The notes under the pieces are model-generated. The model saw nothing but the letters and a program-made list of their open reading frames with translations. It was not told the DNA's origin and made no database searches. From Marsupella aquatica (taxonomy: Eukaryota; Plantae; Marchantiophyta), in NCBI GenBank assembly GCA_973895155.1, contig OZ316895.1:18898508-18962507 (forward strand): 64,000 bases of DNA, in the 5' to 3' direction. A program made the position numbers and the translations under genes. Of the stretch, positions 4,052-31,965 are shown piece by piece (the first letter of the stretch is position 1; each line of letters starts with the position of its first letter).

Positions 4052-4584
4052 ATAGTGGATGGATATTTCTTCATTCTCATCCTGTATGATTGGCGGTAAT
4101 TGTAAGGATAAATGTGTTGATACAAGTGTCTTCTGTCGTGGTCTGGAGTCTTTGGAACCTGAAGGTCTGCCTCGCTTAGCCTTGGGAGTGAGGTCTGTGG
4201 CTCAAGTATCTGGTATATGAATTCTCGCAGGAGTATTGGCTGCATCTATATGTGATTTCGTTACATTTGTAGCATCATTAAATGCGTCAGGTATTTTCTC
4301 CATAATTTGATGGAGATTCAGAATGCGTTGCACTTCATCGTTTGTCAATTGAGTACGAGGATCATTCCAGAATGGATCCTTTGTTGTCCATTCTAATGTG
4401 TGTGTTGAGACAGGCTGTTTGGAGAGTTGTGCTGGAGTTCGAAGTGGTGGGAAGATTTCTTCACAGAATTTACAGTCCTGGTATCGAGCTCGAAACACAT
4501 CAGCAGTGGTGGGTTCAAGATACCTTATTATCGAGGGAGAGTCGTAGCCAACATAGATGCCACATCGACGCTGTGGTTCTAGAG
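4052..4584 (-). pseudogene. Copia pol integrase C-terminal/linker region, cut at 4584 by an insertion
   Basis: RRCGIYVGYDSPSIIRYLEP..DVF.ARY.DC.F.E..FP and DPRT...EVQRI..PDAFND..VTKSHI.AAN.PARI, typical of Bianca pol. Confidence 0.85.
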
Positions 4585-5520
4585 TGTAATTCACCCCTCT
4601 TAAGCTAAGCACAACACTCATCAAGGCAGAAGACTGATCCAAGTACATAATCCTAGCTTGGGTTTGCTGCTTCCCTGTGCTCCACCTCAACGACAGGCTC
4701 AGTCAGCCTTGACAGCCCAAGTCGCAATGGGAAGGATACAAAGATTGCTTGACTCCGGAATCAGGTTGGTAACTTGCAGGGTCAAGAGTCCACCTGGAAA
4801 AAGGACGTAGAGGAAGCTGCTGCCCGGGCCTAGAGGGGCGGAGCCAAGATACATCAATGTCCTCATGCCGGAGGTTAGCGACTTGAGGGAGAGGCCAAGG
4901 CCAACTAATGGACAAGTTGACCAACAACATCAGCAGGTTAGAAGAGGCATACCAGGATGCAGCAAAGGAGGTTGTCATGGCAAAGCAGGAGTTTCACTCA
5001 GACTTGAATGACCAGATCCCACATCTGAAGAAGGACAATGATTATTTGCGTGGTCAGCGGGACAGGCAGTCCAGTCTGGTAAGGGTGGGGCCAGCAAGCG
5101 TGCCAAGCATTAGGAGGTGCGATCAGTAGAGGGTAGGTAGAAGTAGTGGCGTCCATAAGACAGTAGCCGACATTGGTTAGCAACACTATTTTATCAGGCT
5201 GGCGTTATCTTTAGGACTTAGTTGGGAATCTAGACTGAGGCACACTGTTAGGACCATGACACTTAGGCTAGGGTTAGCCTTATCACCACTGGCTCAGGCC
5301 ACGAATCTTAGTTGATACTTAGTGCACCCCCACATAGAGGCAGGGGGAAGACTTTAGTTTTAGACTTGGGAATCCGTCGGATGTGTAGGGAGTCTTGGCC
5401 TTTGTAAATAGAGCGCACCAAGGGGTGGATGTACAATTAAGCTTGTTGGTCTAGTGCGTAGGGCTCCGGGCTCTGTTGTAGTGAGCTGTCCACCGTCACT
5501 GGGTCTGTTGATTCTGTTGA
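4585..5520. mobile_element. LTR-retroelement-derived insertion with a coiled-coil ORF remnant
   Basis: Starts TGTAAT exactly where copia homology stops. ORF 4908-5129 (DYLRGQRDR) resembles 45316-45420 (DRLRRQRDS). Right boundary is approximate. Confidence 0.45.
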
Positions 5521-9200: not shown

Positions 9201-11817
9201 TAAAAGATGTGAGTATATTGTTTACATACTATCCTGGATCAATTGATGACCATTAGATCTCCCTAGATTTAAGATTGATAACTAGATCTTGATTATGAGA
9301 TTTGTAGCCAAGTGACAAATTGGCTAAGCTAACAATTTACTCCAAAACTAAATGTAGAACATTTATTAGAGAGTGGAATCTAACAAATTTTAGCCACTAA
9401 AAATAGGTGCATTTTGAAGAATAAAGTCTTGTTTCCCACGGTTAGCCGTGCGGTAAAATCTTTTCGTTAAAGGCAGAACCCATATACGATTGTGAGGGAA
9501 ACACCATTACTCATCCGGTTCTTTTCCTCCACTGCTATACAATAATATTGTGTTGTACGAGGTCAAAGTAAAAACCCGTACCGTTAAGCAAAATTGCATG
9601 ATATGACTAGGCATGAAACGTTGGTTTGACTAGGATAACACCAGGTTGACTTGATTGAAAGAACATCTCGATCCCATCTAAGCTCAAAGATTTGGTAAGG
9701 GATACATTCCAACTTAGAGCATCTGAAGCGCACCATTTTGGCAATTTGCATACGCCAAAGAGAGCAACTGGATGTAATAAATAAATAAATAAATTGACTT
9801 GACTAGTGTGCACCCGCATCGATAGACACATGCGGCCTTGTGTTTGCTTTCTGAGGCCTCTATTTCTCAGCTACTGTAGATAGCACCCTGCCAAATAATT
9901 ACTCCATTTCATCCCCAGACACATCGATGGACCAAATGTTGGTCATGCATCACCACAGATCTTAAATAGATGTATATGGACCTAAATTCTCTTCTGGCAT
10001 CATAGAGGCCCGCATTGAGGAAGAAATTGCAGCAACCATGTAGATAGAAGCGCTACAAGCAAGTATACTGAATTATTTTGACAGGTTCTTGTAAATCAAA
10101 GTTTTCTTTGCATACATTTTGACAATCATGCACTAAAGTACTTGGCATTCAAACTCAACACGATTTATCTTTTGGCGCCATAGATGAAATGTCGAGCACG
10201 TCAAGAATTTTGAAATGAATGTAACATCGAGCTCAATAAAGTGCACAATGTTGAGACACAAAGTGCATCATGTGAAGGATTAATTTCATTGCATGGGAGT
10301 TGATAACATAGGATTCAGACCTTCTTTGGCCAGGTTCAAACGTGCGTGGTATGAGTATAGGGACCAGAGTTGAAGGAACAGATGGGGAAATTTTAAAACT
10401 TTGGGGCAACAATTTTTGGGTGATCGCCAACCAACATATTGCCAAAATGTGGGATGAGGACAAGGCCAGCAAACCGCTGCCCGCTGGAGATGCTCCTATG
10501 ACTCACTTTAATTGTGAGATCTTAATAATAGAGATTGTATAAAGTGGACGGATACAAAGGAAGAACACTAAAATATCACTTTTTATTCAAATTAGACATT
10601 TCTCTTCCTTCTAAATGCTCAATTCTTGCGGTTCCATAGAGTACTCGGTCCATACAAAATACTGACATCAATGTTGTGATTATGATATCAGTTTTCCCTA
10701 TAATTAGAACAAATTCTGCACATTGGTATATGGGGAAACCAATCTTACACTTTTATTTTCAAATTTTCTATGGAAATGTTCAACTACTTATGTGGTCTTG
10801 AGTAAGTGATTTACCAAGGGGATCTCCGTACCTCTCCTGGTCTCAAATAAGGAGAGAAATATATGTATTGTTTAGCCTCCACAGTGTTTGTAGTTGCAAC
10901 TGTCCACAACACATTTCAACACAAACTAATGCAATGTTTGTTGTTTATAAGCCACCTAAGTTTCAGTTTTCCCAAACATTGTATTTTATTAAGTGTTTTT
11001 CCAACTGAGTATCCTCAAAGCTCTAACAGGGAAGATGAACCCTGAACTGTTGAATAGCCTTCCCAGCAGAGTCTCTCCGCACCCCCCCACCCTCACCCAC
11101 AAGAAAACCACCAACTCCACCCAAAGCCAGGGATATTCCCTTAATTAGTTGCTACCATACAACTCGGGGGTCTCACTATATGGATGCCTCCCCATCACCT
11201 GCGACGTTTTTAGGCCTCGGATCCCCTAAAATGTAAGAAAAAAATAATTTTCAACCCCTATAAAGTTGGAATATTCTTGGAATATTCTAAAATTTGGTTA
11301 TATAATGCTAGGGGACTTTGGGCGGAGCTACGAGAACTGACGGCGCTGACGCTCTGTGGTAAAGTACTTGGGATTTTCTTTTTCGTGTTCCTTGATCGGG
11401 ACGTCTGGCAATGACTGAGGACTACAAGGGTGCTTCCGTTGCGGAAGTCGTTTATGAGATGATTAAGCTTTGCATCGCTAATTTCCTCCTCTGAGTGTTG
11501 AGTTATGTTCTCTTGATTAGGATTAGGGTTGATAACTTTCTCAAGCGTTCGTGGGACACGAGCAATACCGTGCTTCTATCTTGGGTGAGCGACTCTGCCG
11601 CTACTTTCTGGCCTTGATCCGCTCTCTAGTTTGGAGTGACAGTTCGGCTGTGCTGGTTTCCCACTTGAAGACCTGGAAAGTTACACTGTGCTTGTGGGAG
11701 CTTGTTTGAGCCCACAGCTTTTCTGGAACGACTGTTCAAACCTGCCTGGTGAGTTACTCTTTTGTTCCAATTGTTTTACAATTAATCTAACATTTCACTA
11801 ACTCTGGAGATTCTTTT

Positions 11818-11940
11818 GTCCAAAGTTGAAGAATGAAATTTCCAAAACATTCATTTCAAAAATCCAAAAACGTGATCTGAAATTTCCAAAACCCAAAATT
11901 GAAGTTTCCAAAAGCATACTTTTAAATTTCCAAAACCTAG
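11818..11940 (+). repeat. Degenerate ~21-bp-period array with TTCCAAAA core
   Basis: Five to six (t)tccaaaa units. The same kind of array lies at 25667-25800, just upstream of LINE ORF1. Confidence 0.7.
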
Positions 11941-12231
11941 TCCATTGGATGAATTACGAATTCAAAGGCAATGAAAAAAGTACTCCTTCAAATGAATGAC
12001 TGAAATTACTCTTTATAATAAATGAGGCACTAACGGTGGTGCCGTACATATATTTTGATATCCCTTCATGGGACTTCATTGTTGGGTTTTTTGCTAACTA
12101 CAACATCGTCTTCCGCTAAAGTGACTACAAAGTTGACTAGACAACTACACATATTTGACTAGACAGCTACACTAATCATATCAAGAATATCTGTGAACTA
12201 ACAAATGAAGGATAGCTTCGTCACATACACC

Positions 12232-12328
12232 TATTTCTCCTCCTTCCTAAACTCTGTCCATCTTCCAAAACCTCGTCACAGACACCCATTTCTCCTCCTT
12301 CCTAAATTCTGTCCATATTCCAAAACCC
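12232..12328 (+). repeat. ~40-bp imperfect direct repeat x2
   Basis: atttctcctccttcctaaa(c/t)tctgtccat(c/a)ttccaaaacc at 12232 and 12287. Confidence 0.85.
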
Positions 12329-12546
12329 CTGCCAAAGCCTCCCCTCTGCCGTTCCGCCATAGTCCAATTGTGTCCGCCTTCAAGCCAAAACAACTCCTCT
12401 TCTCCTCTCCTCTGCTATTGGGCCACACCGAAAGGAATGATTCCAGGGTTGCACATTGCCCTTTACCCCTCCCTCCAAATGGGGCTAATTCTAATCTATA
12501 TGAAACATATTCACTAAATTCTATCCGTAATCTGAAGTACTAAGTC

Positions 12547-13538
12547 CTACCTACTCTTTACTCCTGTGTTTATTCTACAGAATTTTGACGTTTGTCTGTG
12601 AACTTCGCTGACTACTTTCACAAACTCCCTAAAATTTGTGGCGAATAGCCCATGCGCAGCTCCTAGGCCTTTTGCGCATTGATTAGTTTCATGCTCAGTG
12701 AAGTTTTCCTTACGAGACATCCACAATATGATCTCTATGTGCCGAGGAGTAAGTTCTGAAGTTGTCAGTTGGAGAACATCATATTTGCGCACTGGCCACG
12801 ACGCAAAAAGTGAATTAGATTCCCCAAACCCCTGCAGTTGAGTGTATATCTGTTGATATTGTTTCCGGTCTTCAGCTAAATTCAGACTGGACCATTTTGG
12901 AGTGTTTCGCCACAAATACACACGCACATCTCTTGCTAAGGCCAACTCCTGCAACACTGGTTGAAGTTTGTTGCTTATAAACGTATCTGCAAGGAAACCA
13001 TTATTATTGCCGTTGAAGCAATCACAAAACAGCGTCAAGTATTCGGGGTTAAAGAAACTTCTATGAGGTAAATCATCAAGAAGGATGGTGTTGCTGTCAT
13101 TATAAGGTGCGTTTGTCCGATCTCCATTTAAAACGAGGTCATCCCAAATATTTTTCAGTAATTTCACAAAGCAATTTTTCCCTTTGTTTCTTCCAGCCCC
13201 ATAAAATATCCCAGTCGACAAGGCTTCCACTTCAGTTCTCACAAAGACAAATCGATGCTTCTCGTTGGGAAACACTTTCTCCAAAATCTCATGCACATTA
13301 TGATATACGGCACAGGTCCATATCCCCACATCAAATGTTTGAAGACACCATTCAACGAAGCGCCACATTCCCGGTCTTACATAGATGATTCTATTCTTTA
13401 GAAACAATGTCTCCCCGTTTTCAGTATTTATATCCCTAAGAGACTTTGCTCGCACTCTCGATGCACAATATGTAAGACGACATTCATGTCAAGTACGAGC
13501 AGTTTACGAGGAACGGTGTTTTGTATAATAGTTGCCAT
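12547..13538 (-). pseudogene. FCP1/NIF-family (HAD) phosphatase-like gene with one frameshift near the 5' end
   Basis: ATG at 13538 gives RKLLVLDMNVVL (HAD motif I variant). After a frameshift the 302-aa ORF has YVRPG...F...C...FDVGIWT, FVKLL..IW and YN.SNTILLDD.P.....NP. Confidence 0.8.
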
Positions 13539-13685
13539 ATCGTATGTTACAATATTTGCAGAGTGACGAAACAATAAATGAACATCAATATCGTAAAGTC
13601 AATGCAAGAGCGTAACATCAATTACGACGCATTGCAACGTATGGAAATCTGACGATAACCTATTCCACACGAGAATCGCGTAGAT

Positions 13686-14330
13686 CTAACTCAAATGGTG
13701 ACGATAAAGGCTTAGAATAATATTCCTCCTTTCAGCATCCATGTCCTTGGCTTTGAAATCAATAGGCTTCTCCCTACTCCGGTAATTGGCAAATTTCATG
13801 ACAAACACTCCGCAGTTGTAGTCATCGGTTTGAAGAGGGATGTCTTTACAACAATTTCTCGGCCATGACAAAGCATTCAGTTCCTTATGAGTTCTGAACA
13901 TGGCTTCATCATCTAGATATCTTGCTAGGTTCTCAAGAACTTTAGGGTTATCTCCGTGCAAAGAATCCAAATAGTCCAGTTTCCTAAGACCCATGTCGAT
14001 GACGACCAGTGCCCAATGGTTATGTCCCTCATGAATAGGGACCATGACCATCTCTACATCAGTTAAAAAGTACTCCAACTTCGAGGTCCAAGTTTGAACA
14101 TTGTCATACTTATATCCACCTCGAGCAAGTTCCGAATAGAACCAAGTATCAAAAATATGAACCTGCGAGAGGTCGGTACCCGCGGATTCTACTCTTGAAG
14201 CAATCAGACCAAAATAAGCATTCAGAATTTCAGAAGTTATCCATCGCTCGGGACCTAGACATGCCATCTCGCGATGAGTTATGACGCATCCACTGATTGT
14301 TGACAAAACTAAATCCTGATCCATGTCAGG
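13686..14330 (-). CDS. Ulp1/SENP-type C48 protease domain (C-terminus of the fusion gene)
   Basis: L.PERWITSEILNAY, FDTWFY, VPIH..HWALVVID, YLDSL and PLQTDDYNCGVFV. His-Asp-Cys triad and oxyanion Gln are all present. Confidence 0.93.
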   Translation of the reverse strand, partial: PDMDQDLVLSTISGCVITHREMACLGPERWITSEILNAYFGLIASRVESAGTDLSQVHIFDTWFYSELARGGYKYDNVQTWTSKLEYFLTDVEMVMVPIHEGHNHWALVVIDMGLRKLDYLDSLHGDNPKVLENLARYLDDEAMFRTHKELNALSWPRNCCKDIPLQTDDYNCGVFVMKFANYRSREKPIDFKAKDMDAERRNIILSLYRHHLS

Positions 14331-15009
14331 GTTGAGGCAAAAGTCTATTGCCACATCATTGTTCAGGTTGAGAGAAGTGGGAAAGAGTGAATTGGCACCT
14401 GCCTCATTTGCAGGCTCCATTGCAAGTTCCACAACAACATTATCGACATGTCCGATGACGGGCTCGACCTCGCATGGACCCTGATTTTCTGCCCAAGTGT
14501 GGGGAGGGGATGGATTGACGATGTTAACGGCCTCTTGAACTCCAGTGACAACCCGAAGGTAATCGGAAGGATCCTCAGACACAACTGGTGCAATATCATT
14601 TACAATTGAGTCCACCTCGCCAAACAACCCCACACGAGGCTCGCATAGAGATAGAGGTATCCCACCATCATTGTGTTCTTCCTCCACAAGAGGTCCTTTG
14701 GAACTCCCTAAGTGGTGGATTGGTCTTTGCGCCTCACCAAATTCCCATGGACGGCAAATCTGCTCCCCAACATTAATCATTCCAACACAAGGATCAGAAA
14801 ATCTGTTATCGTCTTGATGGGAGACTGTTCCAGTGACATGATAGTGCCTCCCTTCCTTTGTGCCACTTGCATTCAAGTTTTGCGTTGAGCTGCCCTCCCC
14901 TCTTGAAAGTTTCCATAAGGATTTTGCAAATTGTGCGACACCCTCCAACGAGTTGACATTCTCCGCATAAGCCGTGAGGTCCATCACATCCCCCCTTTCC
15001 GAACAAAAC

Positions 15010-15660
15010 GAGAAACATTCCCTTTCCAGAAGCAGGGCATTCTTTAAAACTTGCCCACCAGTAAAGAAGTCCAACACAATTTCCTCCTTCTCGGAAAATC
15101 AAAGAATGATTGCCTTGATAATTCTGCTGGGCTTAATGTTTGATGTAAATGTTCTGCCACCGGGGGTCCAGAAAGGAATGAGTCTATACAAGCCATCTCC
15201 AAGAGCGGATTTTTGCTTTGCTGCAACCTCTTCCTTGGAAAGGCCAGCATAATCTTCTTTGGCTGGTCTTGCCAGTTCAAGCTGATCCATGGATTCTGCC
15301 AAGAAATGACCTTGAAACCTCTGAAATATTTTTCCCAATCCGGTTCTCGTTCCTGGGAGACTCCAAGGAAAACAAGGGACTCAATAATACCAGACATGAA
15401 ATGCGATGAGCGGACTTCTTTCGCACTCTTCCAATAACTTCCATACTCCAGATGAGCATTATAACTGGAAGGTAGATCAGTGACAGCTTTAATAATTCTG
15501 GCCAGCAAGAGACCTGGGTGCACAAAAAACACGACAGTCACCAAGTCATTGGCGGGGACATTCATGACAGTCTTCAAGAAATTCAGCAGCTCCGATTGTG
15601 TCCAAGTATTTTGAATTGAGTGTGTCATATCGACAATAGCAAGTGATGCATTAATCCTCT
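15010..15660 (-). pseudogene. Beta-class DNA N6A/N4C methyltransferase-like domain, degenerate, within the fusion gene
   Basis: KPSRIIKAIIL*FSEKEEIVLDFFTGG.VLKNALLLERECF matches the KP..l...i...s..ge.VLD.F.GsG....A....R pattern (motifs X-I). It is in frame with Ulp1 across one TGA at 15099. Upstream ASLAIVDMTH (D at ~15630) sits at the expected DPPY position. Confidence 0.6.
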
Positions 15661-16689
15661 CCCTACAACTCGTCGAATCAAAAGGAGGCTCTGCGGAAGC
15701 AAGAAGATTCCCAGAGTAAAATATTCGATATGGATCCATTCTCTCACGGACAGTTCCCCCAAATTTCTTTTGGTAAATATTCCGTAACCTATTCTTCAAA
15801 GGTTCCGGCATATCGGATTTTGCAGAGACCTTGACTAAACTCTTGAAATAAGCATTGTCAACCATTGAGCAACATCTATCCAATTCTTCATTCGCGAAAT
15901 TAAACTTGCAGACCACGTCCGACCAAATGGCCCCAACATTGAAAACACTTTCATAGGTCTCACGGTAGAACCGCAAGATTGCACCTTTCAGCTTTTCAGT
16001 ATACTTGGCTTTCATGGCAAGATCAAACATTGAAGGTATATCTGTCCTTGCATGTCTTCTCTTCATCAAGAGAACCTCTCCCGATTGAACTTTATTCAAG
16101 ATAGAGGTAATCTCAGATTCTTGCGCCCCCTCAAATACCCTGAATGTCGTCCTAGTAAGTTGCTTTGCTTCCCTCTTCTTCCCAGTCATCTCTCCATTGT
16201 TGTCAGGTAAACTACCGGACAACCAACTATTGCAGACCGACATCCACAACTTATAGAGGCTCTCCGATGCAAAAAGGATCCAGTTGTATTTGCTGATGCT
16301 ACTCACTTTCAGTGTGACTTTGGCCAACCCTTTGTAATCCTGAAACCCAACAACAAATGGTAAGAACAACATAGTAAACCAAACCTTTGGAGAAGGTATC
16401 TTAGAGCCAAGCCTTGGATTCTACACGAGGCTCGTGTGGACCACAAAAGAAATTATTGTGTCAACAAGAACGGACCTGGAATTCCTGGGATTTTTGCCCT
16501 GACGGCACTGGCCGCACTAGTCGATTCATTTTCGAATATTGCATTCTCGCATGCCTGACCTGGTCAATGAATGGTGACGAGAAACGATGTGCTTCAGCTT
16601 GCAAGTTATTTGCATGTGAAATCTCAACCAACACCTTAACAGGTGTCGACCCCTTGAGAATTCTTGCATGACGGAATTTGAGGAGGTTG

Positions 16690-17000
16690 GTCGTTTCAAC
16701 TAGAGATGGTTGTGTCTGAGAACTCCAAATGATTTTCCTCGCGGCCATAGTCGAGTGTTGACCACTTATTGCAAAATATTGATACTCGGATAATTGTTTA
16801 GAATCAAAATCTCTGACGGAAAGATCAATAAGATTGTAAACACCATTAATCATCTTGTAAGGCACCAGATCTGTAGGCAAAGGTTCCTAACCGGCATTTG
16901 AAATCATCAACTGAACAAGATGGTTGACATGGTCTTCGTTGAGTAATTGCTCATTCATTTTTGCCGGCGGAGGATAGATATTCATCAAAGGAACAAGGAA
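16690..17000 (-). pseudogene. ParB/Srx-like N-terminal domain within the fusion gene
   Basis: VPLMNIYPPP...LLNEDHVNHLVQLM...G*EPLP..LVP...YFAISGQHSTMAARK. ORFs 16887-17792 and 16461-16880 are in frame across a single TAG. Confidence 0.6.
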
Positions 17001-18074
17001 CAATTTTGACAGCCCAAAAGAATACCAGCATCGGTTTTGTTGCAAAGTCTTTTCTGCCCTTTCAAGTCTGGCTTGATCAACGATTACTTTAGAACTCGAG
17101 TCAGCATTCATCTCTCCCATGTCATCGACGATATCCATCTCAATCATCTCCACTTTCTTACGTTGTTTCTTCAGGATTGGGACACCAGTTTCCGGTGCCT
17201 CTTCCGTTCCCTTAGTCTCTCTTTTGCGGCCCTTTCCACGCTTGGACTTCTTCGATCTTGTCACCCCATGGTCTGTGGATACGTCTTGCACTTGAGTATT
17301 GACCTTTTGAGATTTTGAGGGCACCTTCTGTTTCACAACAGCGGAAGGTGTTGTAGTGGAAGCCTTACGAGACAAATCCTTCTTAACGACACCTTTTGAT
17401 ATGGGTTTTGCTATCTCTTCCACAACTGCCTGCTTCTTTTGAGCCTTCTTCTGTTCTGGCATTTCGGCCGCTTTAATCTTCTTCTGTGGTTGTTTGGACT
17501 TTGCGATCTGTGGCCCTTTCACCTCAGTAGAGCTAGTGCGGATTTTTGCCTGAGGGACATTAGCTTTCCCAACCTTCTTTGGAAGAGCGATCTTTGAAGA
17601 CAATCTCTTCTTCTTGGAAGGAGGAGCGTCTTCTTCCATTCGCTTTCTTTTCTTTTTCTTCTGCACCTCCATCTCAGTCTCATAGACCTTTTCCTCGTCA
17701 GCCTCTGAGCCTCCCACTTCTGCGAGTTCTTCATCCATGGCTTGGATCTCATCTTCAAAGATCTCCTCTGTTCCAACCAACTCAGGACTCAAAGAGTCAC
17801 TGGGAACAATGCTCGGTTCATCTGATGTACCCTACGAACTTGATGATCCTAAATCTGAACTCGACGACGATCCAGGTTCCTGTACAACTTTGCTTGCTTT
17901 GAGAGGGGTATTTACAAACAACAGGAAACAGCAAATAGTAACAGAAAACAAAAACTGGTAATAGGAAAATGAGTGGTAATTTTTTTGAAAATTTTTTGAA
18001 AATTTTTTGGGGAAAAAAAAAGTTTTTTTTTTCAAAATTTTATTTATTTTTGCTAGCGTCCGGCGCTGGTAATG

Positions 18075-18992
18075 CTAGCACCCAAAGCTAGCCAAAAAAT
18101 GTTGTAACTTAGATTTTTTTGGAAAATGAGATTTTTTAGAAAATATTTTGACATGGTTAGTTTTCCTGGTAACAATAACTTTTTGCTGGTAACAGGAAAA
18201 ATTTTCCTGGTACCAGTAAACCTGTTTCCTGTTTACTGTCACGCGTGCCATACCCGCTTTGAGATTTGGGCCACCACCATGACGTCCGTGCCTTTTCTGA
18301 TTCAAATTGAAGACCTTCACTACAAGATGGATCGCAACCCAATGTTTAATCCTTTCCTCGTCAACTGGATCTGGGAAAGCAATTTCCGGAACTATCTCGA
18401 TCTCCTGCCGGAGTTCATCTTCCGGTAAAGATAGAGACATAACGTAAACAACATGCCTGGTTGCAGAAAGGTGAGATTGATAATCTTCGAAGAACAAAAA
18501 ACTAACCCTTCAGAAAGGTGAGATTGATAATCTTCGAAGAACAAAAAACTAACCCTTCCCAACCCTGAAACAATATCCTCAGCAGTGAGAATATTATCTG
18601 GATCCATGAACGATGAGAGGATGGATCAAAAAATCCTAAGGACGTTATGTTCATTGTCGCATCATTTGGCTCAAGACAATGTGCGCAACAATATTGTTCA
18701 ACGGGAAGAGAGAACTCTCTATATCCACAATTAACGCGGTCCTCCACCGTCACTGTCAGAAAGACCTTCCCCTTCTGGTGCTCTAGTGCTTTTGAAATCC
18801 TACAATCGGCAAGCACACCCAAGTACTTCCAAAACCTCTTGGGCTTGGCAATAATGATCCCCCGCAACCAACACCTCCAAGCATCACCCTCCATACGCAT
18901 TTCAAAAGACCATGAATTGACAATTCGATTTTGGTGGCTAACATTGCTTTGACATAACGGCTGCGGTAGGCGCGGGTGGCTGAAACAAACAT
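18075..18992 (-). pseudogene. Unknown cargo gene with CxxC, disrupted
   Basis: Overlapping ORF pieces 18502-18900, 18392-18607 and 18075-18497 join once a frameshift and the 47-bp duplication are removed. Contains YCCAHC. Confidence 0.45.
18464..18557 (+). repeat. Perfect 47-bp tandem duplication
   Basis: cagaaaggtgagattgataatcttcgaagaacaaaaaactaaccctt at 18464-18510 and 18511-18557. Confidence 0.95.
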
Positions 18993-19246
18993 ACGGGAAT
19001 CCTAGGAAAGAACCAATACGAAAGATTTAGAACAGAGTCCAAGATGTCAAAACAAATGCCAAGATTTTATTATTCACAAAAATGGACAATCCGTCCAGAA
19101 AACAACTCATTCGACCAAAATGGACTTTGCCCGCTCGACTACCATCTTCTAAAGTTGGGGCACATATTCATCTGGGTGCCTCGATCTCCAACTAAACAAC
19201 TTGTCTAGTACTAAGTCTTGATAGATGAGTTCTAGGGAAATGTCTC

Positions 19247-19696
19247 CTAGACTGCTTCCTTCTTCAGCCTCTTGATAGTCTGGAGGTGGCCTTCCTCCTG
19301 GGCCGTCATGATAATCAGCTTCTTTGTGAGCGTCTGTATCTGACTCTCACGGAGCTCATCAAGCTTGGCGGCCTCCTTCATCACTAGGCACAACTCCTGA
19401 CATGTCTGAAGATGGTTTCGTTGAGCTTGAAAATATCTTCCAGCATAATCCTTTCTAATCGAACTAATCTCTTCATCTTTCTCCTTCATAGTTTCTTGCA
19501 GGGTCTCAAGTTCCTCGAGGACATCCTCAGTCATTTGGGACTCCTTCTCATGTTTATCTTTGATTGATTTCAGATGTTTCAAGGCATTGTCAATTTGGCC
19601 TTCAAGGTAACAAATGAGCCTCAGGTGAGTAACATGCTCTACACGAGAGTCGCGTGAAAGCAAATGGAAATGATATTTACTCCAATGCATTTTCAT
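19247..19696 (-). CDS. Coiled-coil cargo ORF, probably the last exon of a spliced gene starting near 20065
   Basis: E/K/L-rich heptads. GT/AG-like signals and T-rich tracts occur on the minus strand between 19620 and 20005. Confidence 0.45.
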   Translation of the reverse strand: MKMHWSKYHFHLLSRDSRVEHVTHLRLICYLEGQIDNALKHLKSIKDKHEKESQMTEDVLEELETLQETMKEKDEEISSIRKDYAGRYFQAQRNHLQTCQELCLVMKEAAKLDELRESQIQTLTKKLIIMTAQEEGHLQTIKRLKKEAV

Positions 19697-20668
19697 ACGG
19701 AAGCACTGATGGGATGAGGATTGTCCGGGATCTACACGAGAGTCGCATGAAGATAGAGATAAAAAACGTCTAAAATTGATTCAGAGAAAAAGACTGAGGG
19801 TTACCTTCAAGCATGATCTGTGCGTTCACGGCATAGTACTGGAGCTCATCTACACAAGTCTCATGTAGAAAACTTAGTACTGGGTATCGCATAACACAAA
19901 TAAATCTACACGAGACTCGTGTGGAAGGGACCGCTGAAATTTGAAATAAAAACAAACAACGAAAAGAAAAACTAAAGATCTACACGACTATCGTGTGGAA
20001 ATACCTTCAACTCTGGTACGACCGACATCTCCCGGACCTCCAATTTGGATAGATTCGCCATGAGACATCTTCGCACGTGTGAAACAATTTGCAAAATATG
20101 GACGGAATTGAGCAGAACTCAGAGGGAGAGACAAATGAGCGAAAGGGCGGAGAATGAGCGAGAGGGCAAAGATGAAGGAATGAGTAAATGAGCGAATCTC
20201 CTTGAAATATATACCTGACACGAGGAATGGGCGAGCGTGAAAATGGGCCAGCATAAAGCGTGAAGACATCATTAAGAGTGCCGCCAAAAATATCGACGAA
20301 TCTTACTAGGCGACAATCATGCAGAGCTATCAGCCTGTCACATTCGAGCAGATGTGCTTATTCTTTTGTCATTATCTGATGTCATTATCTGACATGATTA
20401 ATTGCGCCGCCAAAATATCGGAAAATCGGACCACACGACGATCTAGCAGAGCGGCCACCCTATCATTTTTGACCATTATATTCGGGATTTCTATCTGGGA
20501 ATGGTATTTATCGATTAGTTGTCCTGATTCTCTAGTCATTCTCTCGCCAGACATGAATGGTTCCGAGGACAAGTTCTGGCACGAGTGGTTTCGAGGACAG
20601 GTTTTGGCACAGGTTTGAGTCCAAGGACTGCTTCTGGGCGCCCAATCGGTACGTCCCTTCTGGGATTC

Positions 20669-20748
20669 CATTCTTGTGACTGTCTCATTCTTGTGACTGT
20701 CTCATTCCTGTGACTGTCTCCCCGGTCAGTGTCTCATTCCTGTCACTC
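20669..20748 (+). repeat. 17-bp tandem repeat (cattc(t/c)tgtgactgtct) x3 plus a partial copy
   Basis: Read directly from the sequence. Confidence 0.9.
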
Positions 20749-21027
20749 TTGGAGAATGTTTTTTTAGGACAATTATCTGTACCTCATTTCTTTCAAAAGT
20801 TCTACTAAATAGGGGTACTGTAATAGGATATTTAGGATTTCAAAGAGGAATTAGACCTCATTTCTTCCATAACTGCCCTAATTTTAGAATTAGACTTCAT
20901 TTCTTCTTAATTGAGGATGACTGAGGGTCCTGGCATGGGTTATGTCTTGGTCTTGAGGAATTGGACTTCAATTGTAACACAATTTATCAGTTGGGTGGTT
21001 CCTTAATGTGATATTACATGGATTGGG

Positions 21028-21116
21028 GATTTGTACCGTGTTGGAATTTGTACCCTAATGGAATTTGTACACTAGTGGACCTTTTACCCTGTTGAAATTT
21101 GTACCTTGTTGGACTT
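21028..21116 (+). repeat. 17-bp-period degenerate tandem repeat (aatttgtaccNtgttgg) x5
   Basis: Read directly from the sequence. Confidence 0.85.
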
Positions 21117-21406
21117 TCCTTCTCTCTTAGAGTGAAGCATCAAATAATAGTGGGTCCTTTCCTTACTTCTTGTGGGACTTTTTGTCATAAATGCATATGA
21201 TTGTGATAATTCCGTTACTTTTGGGAGATGTTTAGACCTAAGCTGATGCTCTACACGAGGCTCGCATAGCCATCAAACCTCCTTGTGTTTCCTTCCACTA
21301 CCTGTATGCGTTAATAATTCTACACGAGCCTCGTGTTGAGGGATACTAACGTGCATGTTTTATTCTGGTTCACCAAACCTTTTCCTGCTGGTGAATAATT
21401 CCCGTC

Positions 21407-24172
21407 TTGTGTCCACACGAGAGTCGTGTCGAAGTTACTGTTAACCTTGAATCAGTCAAGAATATGTTTTCCCCCGGGGATCGAGTTAATCTCTTATTGA
21501 ATGATGAACCGGTTGCGGGTGGGACGGTTTTCAGCATTACTCCCTCGGACTCTTGTCACAACATTCTGATTGGCGAGCACAGAATCAATGTTTCTGTTGA
21601 GGATGATTCTTCCACCTTACTGAGTTACCTTATCCAAACGCAGGGGCGGACCTGGTCGGCGAAAGCTTAAATTCAGTAATTCTGTGGGATCGATCCAACG
21701 TCAGGTTTGCGGAAAGCTAGCGTCCGGTTGATCCAGGTGACAACCAAGAGGAGATTCCTCTAGAACAGGAAGCAGGTTTTGGGGAGCAAGATGCCACGGG
21801 AGACACTGTCCATAGTCAGGACAATGTTCTCTTGAGCAAGGATCGACCTGAGCGATCAAAGTAGGTGGTTCAAGAAGTTTGCTTTGCTTTACGGAAACGA
21901 TGATGAGACACTACTGGCTTGAGGGTGTATCACGAATCCGCACCCTCAAGCATTGATTAACAATGAGAGAGTTGGAGATGATCATGTTGGGATCAATATT
22001 CTCACACTGGCTGCCGACAACAACATCTCAAAGATGACGTTCCCTTATTTTGTTGAGGGAACGCCTTGCACAATCAAATGGCCTTTGCGGAGAACTCGGA
22101 TCGAGCATGGAAAGCAATTGTTAAGCAATCTATTGGATCAAAATGAATTCCTGAATCCTGAGCGAGCAATTGTATCATATGTTAAACCAAAGCGAGGCTA
22201 TAATAATCAACGTCGCAACCCGCAGGCTCCTAAGGAGAAGGAAAGGAAGAAGATTCATAGAAGGCGTAACAGAAAGAAGACTCGGGAATCTATTGATGTT
22301 GTTTTCCAGGTTGAGTGCTGCACAAAGAATTGTTGTAGGAGACAACAATGGGAAGTGGTCAATCAGATTAGAGATGAATTTTATGGTCTCTCTCACGCCG
22401 ATCAACAGACGTACGTTTTGAACCATCTACACGTGAGGGATACAAAAACTATAGAGGTCGGGATGATTATTTTTCGTGGGACACATGTCTGTAAAGAAGG
22501 GTTTTGGACCATCCATGGTTTCTCCAAAGGAACCTTCTATTCAATCTATAGTCACTATCGGAATGGGGCAAAAGTTGGCGTTCATGGCAACCAAGGATCA
22601 ATGAAAACCAAAGACTACATCACGTTGTTTGTGGAGTCTATACGAAGTGTATTCCAGAAATGTGTAGAGCATATGCCTCATCTCCATAAAATTGGAGAGT
22701 CTGGAAAGCAGGAGGTCGTGTAAAGGGTTCCCGTAAGCTACGAGAGGAAAGATGTTTATGAAGAGGCTTGCAAGCTTAACAAGAATCTTGGAGCTTCTTC
22801 TCCTGTCATTGCTACTTTCTACAAGATATTGGAGAAAAAGTTTCCCAATTTTCAGTTTCCTAATCGAAGCAATTTTGCAAAATGCGATCTCTGTACTACA
22901 ATCAAAGAGACTCTTCGAGGCGAGAAGAGACAAGATTTTTTTCTTGAAATCAAGGCCAAAAGAGAACGTCATATGCTGGAACAACAGTCCCGGAGAAGCA
23001 TGTATTATGCAGCCAAACTGGCAGCAGATCAAGAGCCAAAGAAGTATCTCTCGATGATTCATGACAAAATGGATCAACCCAAAACAGGGATACCAAAAAT
23101 GACTTCAACTCTTAAAAGTCAAGCGGGTAAATCAATTCCGTTACCGATGACATTGATTGGAATGCTCACGCATGGACGGGATCCCGGAATCTATGCCCAT
23201 TTTGCACTTGGTGGATTGTGGGCGAGTGATCCTGATTTCACACTCTCATTTCTTTCAAAGTTGTTCAGGGATCTTGAGTCATTCTTTGGGGATAAGACTG
23301 AAGACTTATCGCTGAGGAGCACAGACGTGTCTGATCCTATTTTTGTTGTGCTTTTAGATCGTTGGGCTTTTGAGATTGGCTATCTAGAAAGGAAGAATGT
23401 GGATTTTGACCATTTTAAAGGACTTGAAAATGAGGCTCCGCGCGAGCCTCGCATGGAACCCTCGTCTTCCGATTCCTTTTGACCACTTCCACGCTATTTG
23501 CACCTCCAACTTGACAATTCAAGGAAGGACAATAAGAATCAGACCGTGATCGCATATTGTAGTGAGCTTGTTCTTCGAGGAGTGTTTGAGTCTGTTACAC
23601 TCTCCTTCCTGATGGTTGGTCATACTCATGAGGACGTTGACGCATTCTTTTCATGAGTAGGAATTCGGATTTATAATCATGAGTTAACAACTTTCTTTAG
23701 TTTGATGGCTGAAGTTTGGGAGTGTGAGAAGAAGCATCCAGTCCCAAGATTCATCCGGGAGGTTGCCGGATACAAAGTTTATGTTTCTTCTTATGTGAAG
23801 AAGATCCAAGGTCAGTTGGCCCCTATGCAGTTCTTGTTTTCAATGAAAGAAAATACACCTGTTTATCAATATCGGGAGAAAATTGATTCGCCGTGGCTAC
23901 CTGCTAAAGGTCACTCCATTTGGAAAACTATTGGAAAGGACTTTGTGTTTCCCTCCAGAAATCCTTTTTCAAAACAAATGGAGTCAACTCATAAGCGAGC
24001 GAGTGACATTCTCGAATACCGCATTCATTACGTTTCATGGCTAAAAGCCGCCTAGAAAGATGTCACATCAGAGGGATATCATTTTTGATCCCCGAAAATT
24101 GAGTATTGGGAAAATGTCATCAGGGTCTTCGAAGGTTCCCTATGCTCTGCACCTAATCTGGAGAGGGACTAT
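21407..24172 (+). pseudogene. Sola1-like (DUF7869-type) DDD transposase with multiple stops and frameshifts
   Basis: ECCTKNCC, VCKEGFWTIHG.S, FAKCDLC, MIHDKMDQ.K, LHLQLDNS.KDNKN (~23500-23540) and SFLMVGHTHEDVDAFFS (~23603-23653). Confidence 0.8.
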
Positions 24173-24620
24173 TGTGACGCCAATGACATGGTCCTTATTT
24201 TGTAATCTGATTAAGTAGGTTGCTGTATGCAAGGAGTAGCTATTGATATTGCATAACAATTAGCAAGATGGCAAGAATAAGGGCAATCATGGCGTTAAGA
24301 GTAGGGAAATAAAAGCTATATCGCGGGTGGTCGACGACCATATCTCTTTCAATATGTCACCAAATCCGGATCTGTAAAGAGCATTGGAAAGATCTGGTCA
24401 AGGCGAGTAAAATCGATATAAAACACTCGAGAAATGGAGGTGTATTAAGAAAGATACGGCCTGATTAGTGTGATGGGTTAACTTGTGGCCGGAATTAGCG
24501 GATTCGGCTTCAGTTTCGGGTTAACCCAAGCTCGACCACGGCTTAGCTTATGTGAGCACGGCTTCAGCTTAGCTCAGGTCAGCACGGCTTCAGCTTAGCT
24601 TAGGTAAGCACGTAGATCAA
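24173..24620. mobile_element. LTR-like fragment truncating the transposase, with short gcacggcttcagcttagct repeats
   Basis: Abrupt TGTGACG junction; repeats at 24537-24612. Confidence 0.45.
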
Positions 24621-25846
24621 CCCTAAACCCAAATCTCTTTTTGCGCTAGTCTCGCGTAGAGCATTGAGGTCCTTCTGTTCCTCTGCGATTGTCTTACCCA
24701 CATCTCGGTGCCAGCTTCCTTGGGTAGTTTGGTTGGAGTCATCTTCCCAACAGATTTTGAATTCAGTTTTGGCATCGATGGCATTGGTTTGAGGGATGCC
24801 TCTTCCAACATCAACTATTTTTGTGAATAATGAAAAGTTTTCTTTTTCAAAATCGTGTGCACGTTGTCAATCACTTACATGGTATCTTCAGCTCTGATGT
24901 ATCTTGTTTTTTTGTGTCACCTCTTTCCTAAAACTTTGGAGGACACAATTATCGCGTAGAGTACACCGAGAAAGTAGACTTGATTTCAAGTTACCCAATA
25001 GAGCTCAGCTTAGCGCAGATTCCTTGTCCGACGGCTGTCTAATCCTTGGGCTCTGGAAGTCCCCCCCTTTGGGCCAAGCTTCTGACCCAGAGGCCTTCCT
25101 CTTGAGATTTTGTTAACATTGTGAATCATCTATGGGGTGATTAGAGAGGTTGAGTGATTCACAGAATTGGTCTTTGTCGCTCCTCACTCAGAGAGTTGAC
25201 ACTCTCGAGCGTAGAATATCAGAATTGGAAAGGCGTGGCCCATCCCAGGTCGTGAAAATTAAAATGGGCGAAGGTGAAAGGTCAAAAGTGTTTGGCAAAA
25301 AAACATCTGACAGCAAACCTGCCCCCCGGTTGGTATCCCAGGCCTTGGAGTTTCAGGCTTCGGGGGAAGATATCCGGAATTTTATAGAAAGAAAGGGCTC
25401 TATAGAAAGTCCCTTGTCATACGCGGAAAGATACGTGATATCTTTGATAGTTAGACCGTTGACCCATCAAATCAAGGAATTTATATTATGGAAGAAAAGT
25501 TCAATATAAAAAGGGCTCTAGCACATTTGATTTTAAATTCCTTCATCTTTGCATCTGTCGATAATAAGGACAAGCTCCACAAAGATTTGCACTATATAAA
25601 ACGAGCACTCGATAGGATGAAAGAGAAAATTGATAGTTTCAATGGACAAGGTGCCCTTTGTGTTCATTCCAAAACTCTAATCTGAAAATTCCAAAACTCT
25701 AAACTAAATATTCCAAAACCTCATTTTAGAAATTCCAAAACCCCTTCTCTAAATTTCCAAAAAGCACTTTTCAATATTCCATTCTTGGGAGAATTTTCCA
25801 GAATTAGTGAAATGTCTGATATTAGCATTATACTTACCTTCGGATT

Positions 25847-27822
25847 ATGGCTACCATGAATTGTGGTCGTGGAGCTATTAGGACCCACTCGAATTCTAGG
25901 AGTGATGCCACTTGGCGGGATGCTGAGGGTGGGGCTGGACATTGGGCAAACCCTGCTTCCCCACGTGTTATGACGACCTCTGCGCGGATTGACAAGCAGG
26001 CGGAAAACTCTTCGGGAACGGGATTTACGGGGCACTACAAGGGCCAGGATGTTAGGGCGATTTGTGACTTCCCTACGGTGGCACAAATCGCACCCTCTAC
26101 CAAGGTGTCTGAGCCGGTCAACTTTGCGACTAATATGCAAAGCTGGTTTGGACTACGTCCTTCTGGAGACAATGTGGATGGCTTCTCCCGGTGGAATACT
26201 GATTTACACCATGATCATCGGGTGATGGATGCTCTGGAAGACAGAATCTCGGCTCCACTCAAGGAACATTTCCGTGATGACATTGGAGAGCGCAGTGAGG
26301 GAGACACTTTGATGTTGGATCACTCTGATGGAGGCACACCTTCCTGGCATTGTAGAATGACTCGGGCTGAAGTTCCTGCTCCTTCGGCTTCCGAACGGAG
26401 GACTGCTAAATTGAACCGGCCAGCAAAGGCAGAAGCTTGCATCCCCCTCCTACGTAGAATTGCAGATCTTTCTGTCCAGGATTGGCCCTCTAAGTTACAC
26501 ACAACCATTGAATGGTCTCTTGATGAAGCTGCGGATACTATCACTGAGCTCTATAATTGCACAATGATGTGCTATTTTACTGACAGGACTCCTATGCTGC
26601 CTACCTTCAAATTCTGGGTCAACAAAACCTTTGTGGAAGAAATGCACTGGCCTGTGACACAAGTGAAATTTGTTGGTAAGAATTTTTATTTGGTTTCCTT
26701 CAGAAATCCAGAGCATTGAGACTTTGCCTTGGCTGGTGCTCCCTGGTTCCTTGAACGGAAATTTGTTTTCACCTTTCTGTGGGACCCTTCTTTCGATATT
26801 AGGAGTGAGTCCCATACGTTACTCCCTGTCTAGATTGAAATACCTTTTCAAGCACTTGTGTTGGAACCCTGCAGGAGAAAGCTGGCTGCTTCCCTGGGGG
26901 CATTCTTCACTACATTCAAGGGGATGAATTAAGCTCCTAACCTCATGACAGGGCTTGTGTCTTGTGGGACACCCAGCGTGAAGTACCTCTAAGCGTGGAG
27001 GTATTGATTAAAACTGGACTCTCTATTTGGCAGCCGGTGATTTTTAAAAATATCCCCTTTCACTGCTTTCATTGTGGTAAGAAAGGACATCTGGCCAGTG
27101 GATGTCAAGAATTTGATGAAACTCCAACTGCTACTGATACTCCCATTGCGGATGTTCCGTCTATTCCTATTGCCACAACCATTGTACCTATTCCAGCTAC
27201 ACTTGAGAATGTTCAGCCTAACTCTGCTCCTCCGTCTACCGCTGAACCAACACTCCCTACCTCACAAGCTCCAGCACTAGTTCTGGTGCACTCGCCCATC
27301 GTGACTTCTCATCCAGTAACCCCTTCTACGTCACCAATTCCTCCTCTACCTGATGCAGACAAAGAGAATTCACTTTTTGGTGGTCCCTTCACTATGGTTG
27401 ACGCTAACATTGTGGTGACTGCGAGGGACTTTGCGGACTCCTGCTTCAGTGTTGAAGCTCTTGATGCTACTGAGCTGGTGCTCTCTAACAGAGATCTTAT
27501 CCCTCTGGTGATTCAAGAACTACAAGTGGCCCCGCAGACCTTAATCCCACTCAACTCTGGTTCTATCTCCCTTGAAAATCAGGTTGTTTTTACTGTTGAG
27601 CAGCCCACGTTGCTGCTGCCGATCACCGGCGCTAGCAAATCTAAGGTGATGGCTAATGTGGATGGTGATCGATCTGCTTCTGATTTACCATCGGATATGG
27701 AGCTATCTGACTATGAGGGCTATGTCTCCCGCAGTGCTATAAAGAAGGATTGGGCTCGGAAGCTGGCGAAGCGTTCTCCTGTCGAGGAGAAGATGGATTA
27801 CTCCAAAGAGGAGACTTTCTAG
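25847..27822 (+). pseudogene. LINE ORF1 (DUF4283/RRM-like domain plus CCHC zinc knuckle)
   Basis: VKFVGKNFYLVSFRNPEH*..AL...PW......F...W.P.F and WQPVIFKNIPFHCFHCGKKGHLASGC. Internal stops at 26717, 26830 and 26938. Confidence 0.88.
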
Positions 27823-28034
27823 GGATCATAAAAAGGGACACCATGCAGAGATTGTTGAGGATCTGAATTCTCCAGTGACCCAATCTATTTTACCGGCTGA
27901 GAGCCCGCTGATGGGTCCGGTTGCTTCTACCCTGGTGGCGGCTGGCTCCCTCCTCCCCACCGGTTGAGGGGATCTGCTTGACAGTTTTTTACTCCGCTGA
28001 CCTGCTACGGTGCTAGGTGCACAAGTTTGCACCC

Positions 28035-31000: not shown

Positions 31001-31965
31001 GATTTTCCAACTTGTCTGATCAACTCTTATCTGAGGTGATGCAAACTTTTGGCTGCTTGGAAATCCGTCAGATCTGTGATTTCTGGTCTATATCCAATGC
31101 TACCTGGATTCCCATGTTCGACAGGATTGGGAGTACGAGGAACCTTTCGATGGAGGGTCGAAGGACTTGCCTGTCGTTCACCTGCACCATCCACAACTCA
31201 ACTTACTTTGGCTGCATTGTTGAGACCCACGTTGCTCAGTGGAGATGGGCTGATCAGAACCTGTTGCTAAAGCACTTTAGACTTCCCAATCTACGTGCCT
31301 ATGAGATGATTCGTCCAAAGGGATCGGATTATGAGAGGATGAACCGCATATGGGGTAAGACCTGCTCTGAAGCTGAATGGTCTAATATGTGGCAAGCCAT
31401 GTGGAAGTCTGACCTCTCTACTTGAGCTAAAGTCTTTCTCTGGCATATCCTGATGCAAGGACTATTTTTTGGCTCCAGAGCCCTGAGAATTGGAAAATCT
31501 TCTGGATGTTGCACTCTTTGTTGCGGAGTCCTAGAAACCATCCCCCACATTTTTTCTAGCTGCAGGCATGCAGCCAGATGTTGGCCCCTTGTCCATGGAT
31601 GGCTGAATGGTCTCATTTGTGATAATGAGATGGACTTAGTAGGATTGATACTCTCTACCATGTTGAGAACACCACCATCTACCCTCCGTTTCTTTGTGCT
31701 TTATCAAGTGTTGTGGAATCTTTGGCTGGCACGGAATATTCAAAATTTTGACTTGACACAAAAGAGGAGCTTCAATCAGGTTCTTGTTATCTCTGAAACA
31801 CTGGATCATCTCACTGTGGTTGCGGAAGCTACTAGCCCTTCAAGAAGACTTGTTCGGCTTTCTGGTGCTTTGGAAATCCTAGGGCAGGAACGCAATAGAA
31901 TGATGAGAGATAGCATTGTTAGTGTTGAGTCACATTGCAGACGGGTCTTGACCCGTTCTGGTTGA
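28035..31965 (+). pseudogene. LINE ORF2 (AP endonuclease, RT, zf-RVT)
   Basis: ASWNVCGL, LALQE.K, LYAPN, GDF, LDRFY, SDH; KAPGVDG, WRPLTML, LDFEKAFDRV, GVRQGCPLSPLLF, FADD, RYLG; CTLC...ETIPHIF..C. Many stops and frameshifts. Confidence 0.95.

Follow-up and report, generated by a model that had tools for sequence, protein, structure and literature searches.

A Sola-like transposon of the liverwort Marsupella aquatica with a broken gene for a predicted ParB-like, methyltransferase-like and Ulp1 fusion protein and twelve confined palindromes

Sola transposons are described as bearing terminal inverted repeats and as duplicating 4 bp of their target (PMC10741241), and one of them, Sola1-1_Ec32 of Ectocarpus, carries opposite its transposase a gene for a protein of 1104 amino acids (aa) with ParB and N4C/N6A methyltransferase domains, for which self-modification was proposed; similar proteins were cited for green and red algae (PMC12477816). 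In red-algal Plavaka elements, inverted-repeat arrays adjoin ParB cargo genes (bioRxiv 10.1101/2025.02.11.637652), and the transposon protein VANC recognises short motifs and removes DNA methylation from its elements (PMC5735166). Here we describe one broken gene, for a protein with predicted ParB-like, methyltransferase-like and Ulp1 domains, which lies within an approximately 14-kb, multi-copy DNA transposon of the liverwort Marsupella aquatica, together with twelve palindromes confined to the same element. The window analysed is a stretch of 64,000 nucleotides (assembly GCA_973895155.1, contig OZ316895.1, positions 18,898,508 to 18,962,507 of the forward strand), and all positions count from its first letter.

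The locus resembles Sola1-1_Ec32 in being a giant DNA transposon (21.5 kb in the alga) with a 4-bp target duplication and an accessory gene opposite the transposase, in which ParB-like and methyltransferase parts are joined in one protein of more than 1100 aa. It differs in that the Ulp1 domain is not mentioned in the accessible text on the Ectocarpus element, where the methyltransferase is a predicted writer, in the terminal inverted repeats (282 bp there, 24 bp here) and in the host, which is there a brown alga. With the red-algal Plavaka accessory genes PAG2 and PAG3 it shares ParB-like cargo, inverted repeats within the element and a PF01555 methylase as cargo, and there, too, the effector domains differ and cargo passes from one transposon family to another; unlike here, one gene joins ParB to a 2-oxoglutarate oxygenase and another the methylase to SET, the repeats form tandem arrays beside the gene instead of being dispersed, and the transposase is of the EnSpm type. 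These likenesses to the Ectocarpus and red-algal proteins were drawn from published descriptions, by architecture and orientation.

Like VANC and the Kaonashi (KIU) elements, the locus combines a transposon-encoded accessory protein with short element-specific motifs and with a Ulp1 tail that only some members possess. VANC, however, has DUF1985/DUF287, for which no Pfam match was found in any piece of our gene, as well as a Mutator transposase and eudicot hosts; its motifs are of 8-9 bases, non-palindromic and tandem, and its activity has been shown, whereas the function considered here is a candidate one. In fold and motif order the methyltransferase part is like CcrM, M.RsrI, M.PvuII and rotifer N4CMT, and the ParB-first architecture is like that of phage ParB-methyltransferase fusions (ParB-terminase loci are named in PMC4738411), but the protein departs from these enzymes and fusions by the absence of D/N/S-PPY, a longer helical insert, an intron and a eukaryotic C-terminal module. 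The Dam enzymes of retrotransposons are placed in a different class by a preprint. In layout the gene is like algal ParB-methyltransferase cargo, and its effect may resemble that of VANC/KIU; the protein is not a VANC. The initial annotation of this stretch did not know the three-domain architecture from a Sola-type element. ParB plus methyltransferase on a Sola element has in fact been published (PMC12477816), and no report of the triple fusion was found in a literature search that lay mostly outside subscription journals and Repbase; at the level of titles and listings, no land-plant case of ParB-methyltransferase transposon cargo was found either. New here are the land-plant relatives, the degenerate catalytic loop, the Ulp1 tail and the dispersed palindromes.

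The fused cargo gene and its relatives

On the minus strand the cargo gene extends from 17894 to 13686 (Table 1). A frame with the head and the ParB-like part is interrupted by a TAG and followed by an intron, exon 2, a change of frame, a TGA and a 470-codon open frame, which runs from methyltransferase motif I through the linker into Ulp1. The initial annotation had joined these open reading frame (ORF) pieces into a single gene for about 1300-1400 aa, and the pieces, the stops and the domain order were all found in the window as it had described them; the product would have 1305 aa from the ATG at 17738 or 1419 aa from that at 18440. The fusion is upheld by sibling copies free of the lesions, by unbroken relatives that span the core, and by the single ORF that holds motif I and Ulp1.

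Table 1. Features of the element and its cargo gene (positions in the window)
Feature	Positions	Strand	Details
Whole multi-copy DNA transposon, ~14 kb	11785..25820		inverted arms, ATTA flanks; ends uncertain by a few bases
Left subterminal array	11818..11938	+	22-bp period
NIF/HAD phosphatase-like ORF	12547..13488	-	directly downstream of cargo gene, inside element; PF03031, E 6.4e-9
Twelve 21-bp palindromes, TCYACACGAG-N-CTCGTGTRGA	13664..23457		not noticed in the initial annotation
Ulp1/SENP (C48) protease domain	13686..14300	-	PF02902, E 1.4e-33; shares its open frame with motif I
Linker ending in EAGAN (14405-14391)	14301..14889	-	EAGAN expected by chance in linker ~5e-4
Exon 2, second frame: remaining methyltransferase fold	14890..15317	-	KP motif 15140-15126; DFFTGG 15077-15054; stop 15101-15099
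Exon 2, first frame: helical region followed by initial half of methyltransferase fold	15318..16339	-	68 HMMER relatives
Intron, predicted	16340..16475	-	136 nt, phase 0, GT..AG; contains one palindrome; same codon boundary in L001
Exon 1: acidic and K-rich head, ParB-like part	16476..17894	-	nuclear localization signal-like 17660-17640; ParB-like ~17070-16500; stops 17834-17832, 16889-16887
Insertion like a miniature inverted-repeat transposable element, secondary, 351 bp	17905..18255		9-bp target duplication GCTTTGAGA; contig joints skip 360
Possible true 5' end of reading frame	18256..18440	-	presumed: in frame across the insertion, contigs skip 360 bases
DDD-type transposase, broken, several stops in one frame	21461..24140	+	PF25273 DUF7869, E 1.7e-34
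Right subterminal array	25667..25787	+	22-bp period, orientation as left array

The sibling copies were read in contigs of four of five public runs (two studies), which may include the source of the window and do not represent independent organisms; summed contig depth was not taken as copy number. Both stops had been ascribed to C>T changes, and the siblings read as this explanation predicts. In all four runs the TAG at 16889-16887 is replaced by CAG, with G at plus-strand position 16889 in all or nearly all of the contig depth, and the TGA at 15101-15099 by CGA (G on the plus strand at 15101), which is the majority reading in three of the four. Most majority differences between window and contigs (32/47 in run X4) were A>G and T>C on the plus strand, as expected for a window copy decayed by C>T change. 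The single frameshift could be placed near 15317-15318, where homology of the first frame of exon 2 stops and switches frame, and where some sibling contigs of all four runs have an extra base behind 15317, for part of the depth only; the stretch 15316-15047 of the long ORF is thus out of frame. A frameshift placed near 15150 was rejected, and so was a catalytic role for the QNPW string within 15316-15047, since that frame matched 0/80 relatives.

The short intron proposed earlier is supported by GT..AG borders at the homologous site in the genomic relative L001 and by the relative P0081, which is continuous across it. A third in-frame TAG, at 17834-17832, had gone unnoticed, as had the 351-bp insertion just upstream. 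Without the 351-bp insertion, the frame extends to the ATG at 18440, and the segment 18256..18440 had no match among the 80 relatives. The window copy is unable to make the protein and is a dead copy.

In order to find relatives, HMMER was run against 1.84 billion representatives, which gave 68 matches to exon 2; cluster look-ups for 20 and one profile search added 12, and the resulting 80 proteins include many fragments. Named sources are the liverworts Calypogeia fissa and Riccia sorocarpa and the fern Adiantum nelumboides, which by themselves would make a liverwort or another seed-free plant the likely host. The ParB-like piece is matched by six of them (exon 1 in BLAST, 6/80, best E-value 3e-27), the first frame of exon 2 by 75, the motif I piece by 12 and the Ulp1 piece by none, and all three core pieces are matched in order in P0072, P0081 and P0006. 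Separate genes in intact homologs, as the initial annotation had pointed out, would speak against a fusion; in both P0072 and P0081 a single uninterrupted ORF comprises the ParB-like, the helical and the methyltransferase-like part. At the C-terminus of eight of the 12 motif-I relatives (two near-identical) an unnamed domain of about 90 residues was recognised by eye. This domain (Y-x-W-x-x-G-P-x-K-G ... E-Y-G-S-F; carried by P0003, P0004, P0030, P0072, P0075, P0080 and P0081) has no Pfam match and stands in the place of Ulp1. The core is thus old and conserved, while the C-terminal module is swapped, Ulp1 being so far particular to the family of the window. Word-indexed searches, which are weak ones, returned no longer proteins with exon 2 and none with the Ulp1 piece. 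An ESM Atlas query with exon 2 gave only matches under 0.9, of DUF6589 type, which were not used; among viral contigs 145 pattern matches included none that were related, and among metagenome contigs 1/258 stretches was retained, only 1.8 kb long.

The relative P0072 was modelled with AlphaFold2 using 70 rows, from which 11 redundant proteins were omitted and to which one window piece was added. The model has a mean pLDDT (predicted local distance difference test) of 72.5, with the core mostly above 80, and its residues 463-737 align with CcrM at Z 17.5 (root-mean-square deviation, rmsd, 3.5; 214 aligned) and with BceJIV, MboIIA, PvuII, RsrI and N4CMT at Z 15-16, with a Foldseek probability of 1.0. 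The family profile also finds M.RsrI by sequence (E 2.7e-7); the piece 14890..15317 on its own gives PF01555 at E 1.5e-4, below the cut-off, and is matched by 12/80 relatives. As in the beta class, the model has a Rossmann-like fold with the catalytic half first and the S-adenosylmethionine-binding motif I last. The beta-class assignment of the initial annotation is thus sustained for the fold, by structure and by profile, but not for catalysis, since the catalytic motif IV, (D/N/S)PP(Y/F/W), occurs in 0/35 rows. The methyltransferase is likely non-catalytic, to judge from its aligned motifs.

The ParB-like N-terminus proposed earlier is supported through the model of P0072 only; the window's own piece matched nothing. 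For residues 56-374 of P0072, the six best rows after 20 methyltransferase rows all had the ParB/Srx fold at Z 5.6-6.9, namely PadC (Z 6.9, rmsd 3.4, 99 aligned), KorB, SerK, pNOB8 ParB, SbnI and sulfiredoxin, and the KorB and pNOB8 alignments reach into the helical region. The best viral-library match of P0072 was a phage ParB/Srx protein (712 aligned columns, E 4.5e-8). No Pfam ParB match was found, and a six-row profile of the window piece found no PDB sequence. The box I Arg of ParB is present in 4/4 relatives and is Gln in the window copy, in which YFAISGQHS lies at 16778-16752; the KKKKRKR string of the initial annotation was located at the nuclear localization signal-like site in Table 1. 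Agreement among six members of the fold family, shared motifs and the top viral match together suggest that the N-terminal part is likely ParB.

The Ulp1 domain scores 117 bits for PF02902 (cut-off 20.7), and its closest solved relatives are SENP2 and SENP1 (SENP2, E 8.5e-34). Its triad had been called intact; when aligned to SENP2, His, Asp and Cys were indeed kept at 14018, 13997 and 13814, and so were the oxyanion Gln at 13832 and the Trp of the tunnel at 14243. From this similarity SUMO is the likely substrate, with NEDD8 or ubiquitin also possible. EAGA(N/S/H) occurs late in the linkers of five long relatives, and in the window EAGAN stands just before Ulp1.

Palindromes confined to the element

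The twelve palindromes lie at 13664, 14629, 16420, 19638, 19731, 19849, 19905, 19979, 21250, 21319, 21412 and 23437, and within the window they are confined to the element. Their 23 strand matches at 12 places compare with 0.04 expected, and the largest number in 100 shuffles was two. Under a matrix built from the twelve, their scores are 24.5-33.4 bits, against 3.6 for the highest-scoring site beyond the element. A thirteenth candidate at 24640 (18.6 bits) was not counted, as it falls inside the range of the shuffle maxima (largest 20.3). Eight of the twelve lie at 19638-21432, upstream of two divergent gene blocks; of the others, one lies within the intron, one immediately follows the stop codon and two fall in coding sequence. 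CG sites occur within the palindromes. Inverted repeats are what ParB proteins bind, and the palindromes are a candidate DNA address that fits the DNA-loading role proposed in the initial annotation; by analogy, they are likely to be the docking sites of the protein.

Possible roles of the protein

The reading that we favour, with somewhat less than even confidence, is a transposon-encoded accessory protein for self-targeted anti-silencing. The predicted ParB-like part, with the helical region as the rest of the front half, would likely bind to the 21-bp palindromes of its own element; the methyltransferase fold would serve as a further DNA- or cofactor-binding module, likely a non-catalytic one; and the Ulp1 tail would likely strip SUMO from nearby silencing proteins. 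The outcome would be that the element and its siblings are kept open and the family is protected in trans. Anti-silencing that is guided by motifs and combined with a Ulp1 tail has a precedent in VANC/KIU (PMC5735166; PMC13317346).

Several observations weigh against this reading. Ulp1 is present in none of the 80 relatives, including the 12 that reach motif I, which means that the family does not need it. None of the ParB Z-scores reaches 8, and according to the tool matches below that value are common; the ParB piece of the window itself was modelled poorly (pLDDT 46.9) and gave no ParB match. The ParB CTPase clamp has a GxxRxxA arginine box; here the GxxR box reads SGQHS, SGAHS or SGLHS (SGxHS in 5/5 rows and in the window), so that CTP-driven clamping is not assured. 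The acid at the motif IV position is conserved (D in 34 and E in 1 of 35 rows), and motif I is DFFSGG-like, with SGG in 11/11 rows and DFFTGG in the window, both of which fit a functional cofactor pocket. Binding of the palindromes could also be due to the transposase or to a host factor, and the function of Ulp1 in KIU elements is itself given as unknown (PMC13317346).

The same conserved residues bear on a different proposal, that the methyltransferase is active through a non-canonical loop and writes N4-methylcytosine (4mC) or N6-methyladenine on its own element, Ulp1 being a secondary add-on. We consider this unlikely. The invariant acid, the conserved motif I and the N/H-P-x-x-K-P conserved in the family rows would suit such an enzyme, as would the retention of the whole beta-class fold and the CG sites in the palindromes. 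Self-modification is what the Ectocarpus paper predicts (PMC12477816), and a liverwort uses 4mC enzymes of prokaryotic origin (bioRxiv 10.1101/2021.02.12.428880). However, PPY is missing in 35/35 rows, and the motif IV position, which was assigned by strand order and aligned ranges and not by residue-level superposition, reads D-F/L/A/T-x-R, with DMTH (15643-15620) in the window. Motif I aligns to DFFAGSG of M.RsrI with a one-residue gap, and the second Gly of FxGxG is missing as aligned. Furthermore, in the case of DIRS1, transposon methyltransferases with comparable substitutions have been regarded as inactive (PMC4738411), even if a preprint of 2026 describes the pocket as preserved in those of the Dam type.

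It is likewise improbable, in our estimate, that the protein is a transposition cofactor, which would bind the internal palindromes and bridge or compact the 14-kb element while Ulp1 acts on the transposase or on repair proteins. ParB proteins spread on and bridge DNA, and the palindromes span 10 kb with both genes included, which would agree with such a role; for MuDR, the accessory protein binds its transposase (PMC12973397). Yet the clustering of eight sites upstream of the divergent gene blocks is regulatory-like, the element ends have 22-bp arrays of their own, and similar cargo of red algae passes from one transposase family to unrelated ones, which speaks against a function tied to a particular transposase (bioRxiv 10.1101/2025.02.11.637652).

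Quite unlikely is a Ulp1 that was recently captured as a host fragment and rides neutrally on an old cargo gene, with the palindromes belonging to the transposase or a host factor. Such an origin would agree with the lack of Ulp1 in all 80 relatives, with the empty, though weak, search for longer proteins with the Ulp1 piece, and with the recurrence of C48 domains as transposon cargo (PMC13317346; PMC12973397). Against it, the frame is open for 470 codons from motif I to Ulp1 with all catalytic residues kept, the junction sits just behind the linker motif common to relatives, and the contig depth of Ulp1 is about that of the rest of the element. That the pieces belong to separate genes, or adjoin by chance, is highly improbable, for although no one protein in the databases reaches from ParB to Ulp1, the siblings are free of stops and frameshift, unbroken relatives span ParB to motif I, and motif I shares its ORF in the window with Ulp1.

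The element, its surroundings and its meaning

The ends of the element are marked by 24-nt inverted arms at 11785-11808 and 25797-25820, which are 88% complementary, with ATTA on the outer side of both arms at this one locus. Low-depth flank contigs end at 11814 and resume at 25794, and the interior is tiled by many contigs. In the four runs, flank contigs differ from the window by 0-2 positions, so the runs contain this locus, and many sibling copies are also present. The ATTA and the 24-bp arms, seen at one locus with approximate ends, correspond to the 4-bp target duplication and terminal inverted repeats of Sola elements. The transposase is divergent from the cargo gene, head-to-head, and we take its DUF7869 and its QLDN..NKN / GHTH..D motifs to be putative Sola features; with these and the 4-bp duplication it is tentatively called Sola-like. 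No paper naming DUF7869 was found in the literature search. The 22-bp subterminal arrays are direct, not inverted, at the two ends.

Directly downstream of the cargo gene, the NIF ORF had no PDB sequence match. The fern gene models P0062 and P0074 have a NIF domain behind the same core, and the pairing of NIF and core may therefore be old; these two end in NIF without motif I and may be merged gene models. Two further ORFs of the element, both on the minus strand (18502-19026 and 19247-19780), one with Cys motifs and one coiled-coil-like, gave no Pfam family above the cut-off and no match among the 80 relatives. A short direct duplication of about 55 bases lies at 18490-18600 between two upstream ORFs. 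A 30-nt inverted pair (19054-19083 / 24817-24846), behind ORF 19247-19780 and behind the transposase, is possibly a shared 3' signal. The insertion at 17905-18255 is high-copy and ends in GGGTAT/ATACCC; loose contig ends at 17905 and 18255, at high depth, occur beside insertion-free contigs. From the length of its target duplication, it is presumably Mutator-like. A second high-depth insertion lies at the transposase end (~24170-24790), part of which recurs at 36416 and 56195. Outside the element, a very high-depth repeat (11163-11297) with a sharp left edge at 11163-11166 stands just to the left; a Copia-type reverse transcriptase remnant (2090-4702, minus strand) lies further left, and remnants of the long interspersed nuclear element type (25826-31965, plus strand) lie on the right.

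For brown and red algae, ParB-type cargo has been proposed both to bind its own element and to protect it epigenetically (PMC12477816; bioRxiv 10.1101/2025.02.11.637652). The general cargo class was already known, and the window copy is dead, which limits the significance of the locus. The element nevertheless offers a candidate site defined to 21 bp, a family with many copies among which intact ones may be sought, liverwort and fern relatives and an effector with a simple assay, and it opens a second route to the question of what Ulp1 does on plant transposons. A wider view, which we hold as speculative and rather doubtful, is that seed-free land plants have a second, VANC-independent family of self-targeting regulators, built on a phage-derived chassis of ParB and a dead methyltransferase, which would read element-specific parS-like palindromes and carry interchangeable C-terminal chromatin effectors; these would be the SUMO protease here, the unnamed 90-residue domain in most long relatives and perhaps a phosphatase-like domain in the fern. 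If self-targeted anti-silencing holds true, sequence-specific anti-silencing would have had an independent origin here, and a tool for epigenome targeting might be gained from it.

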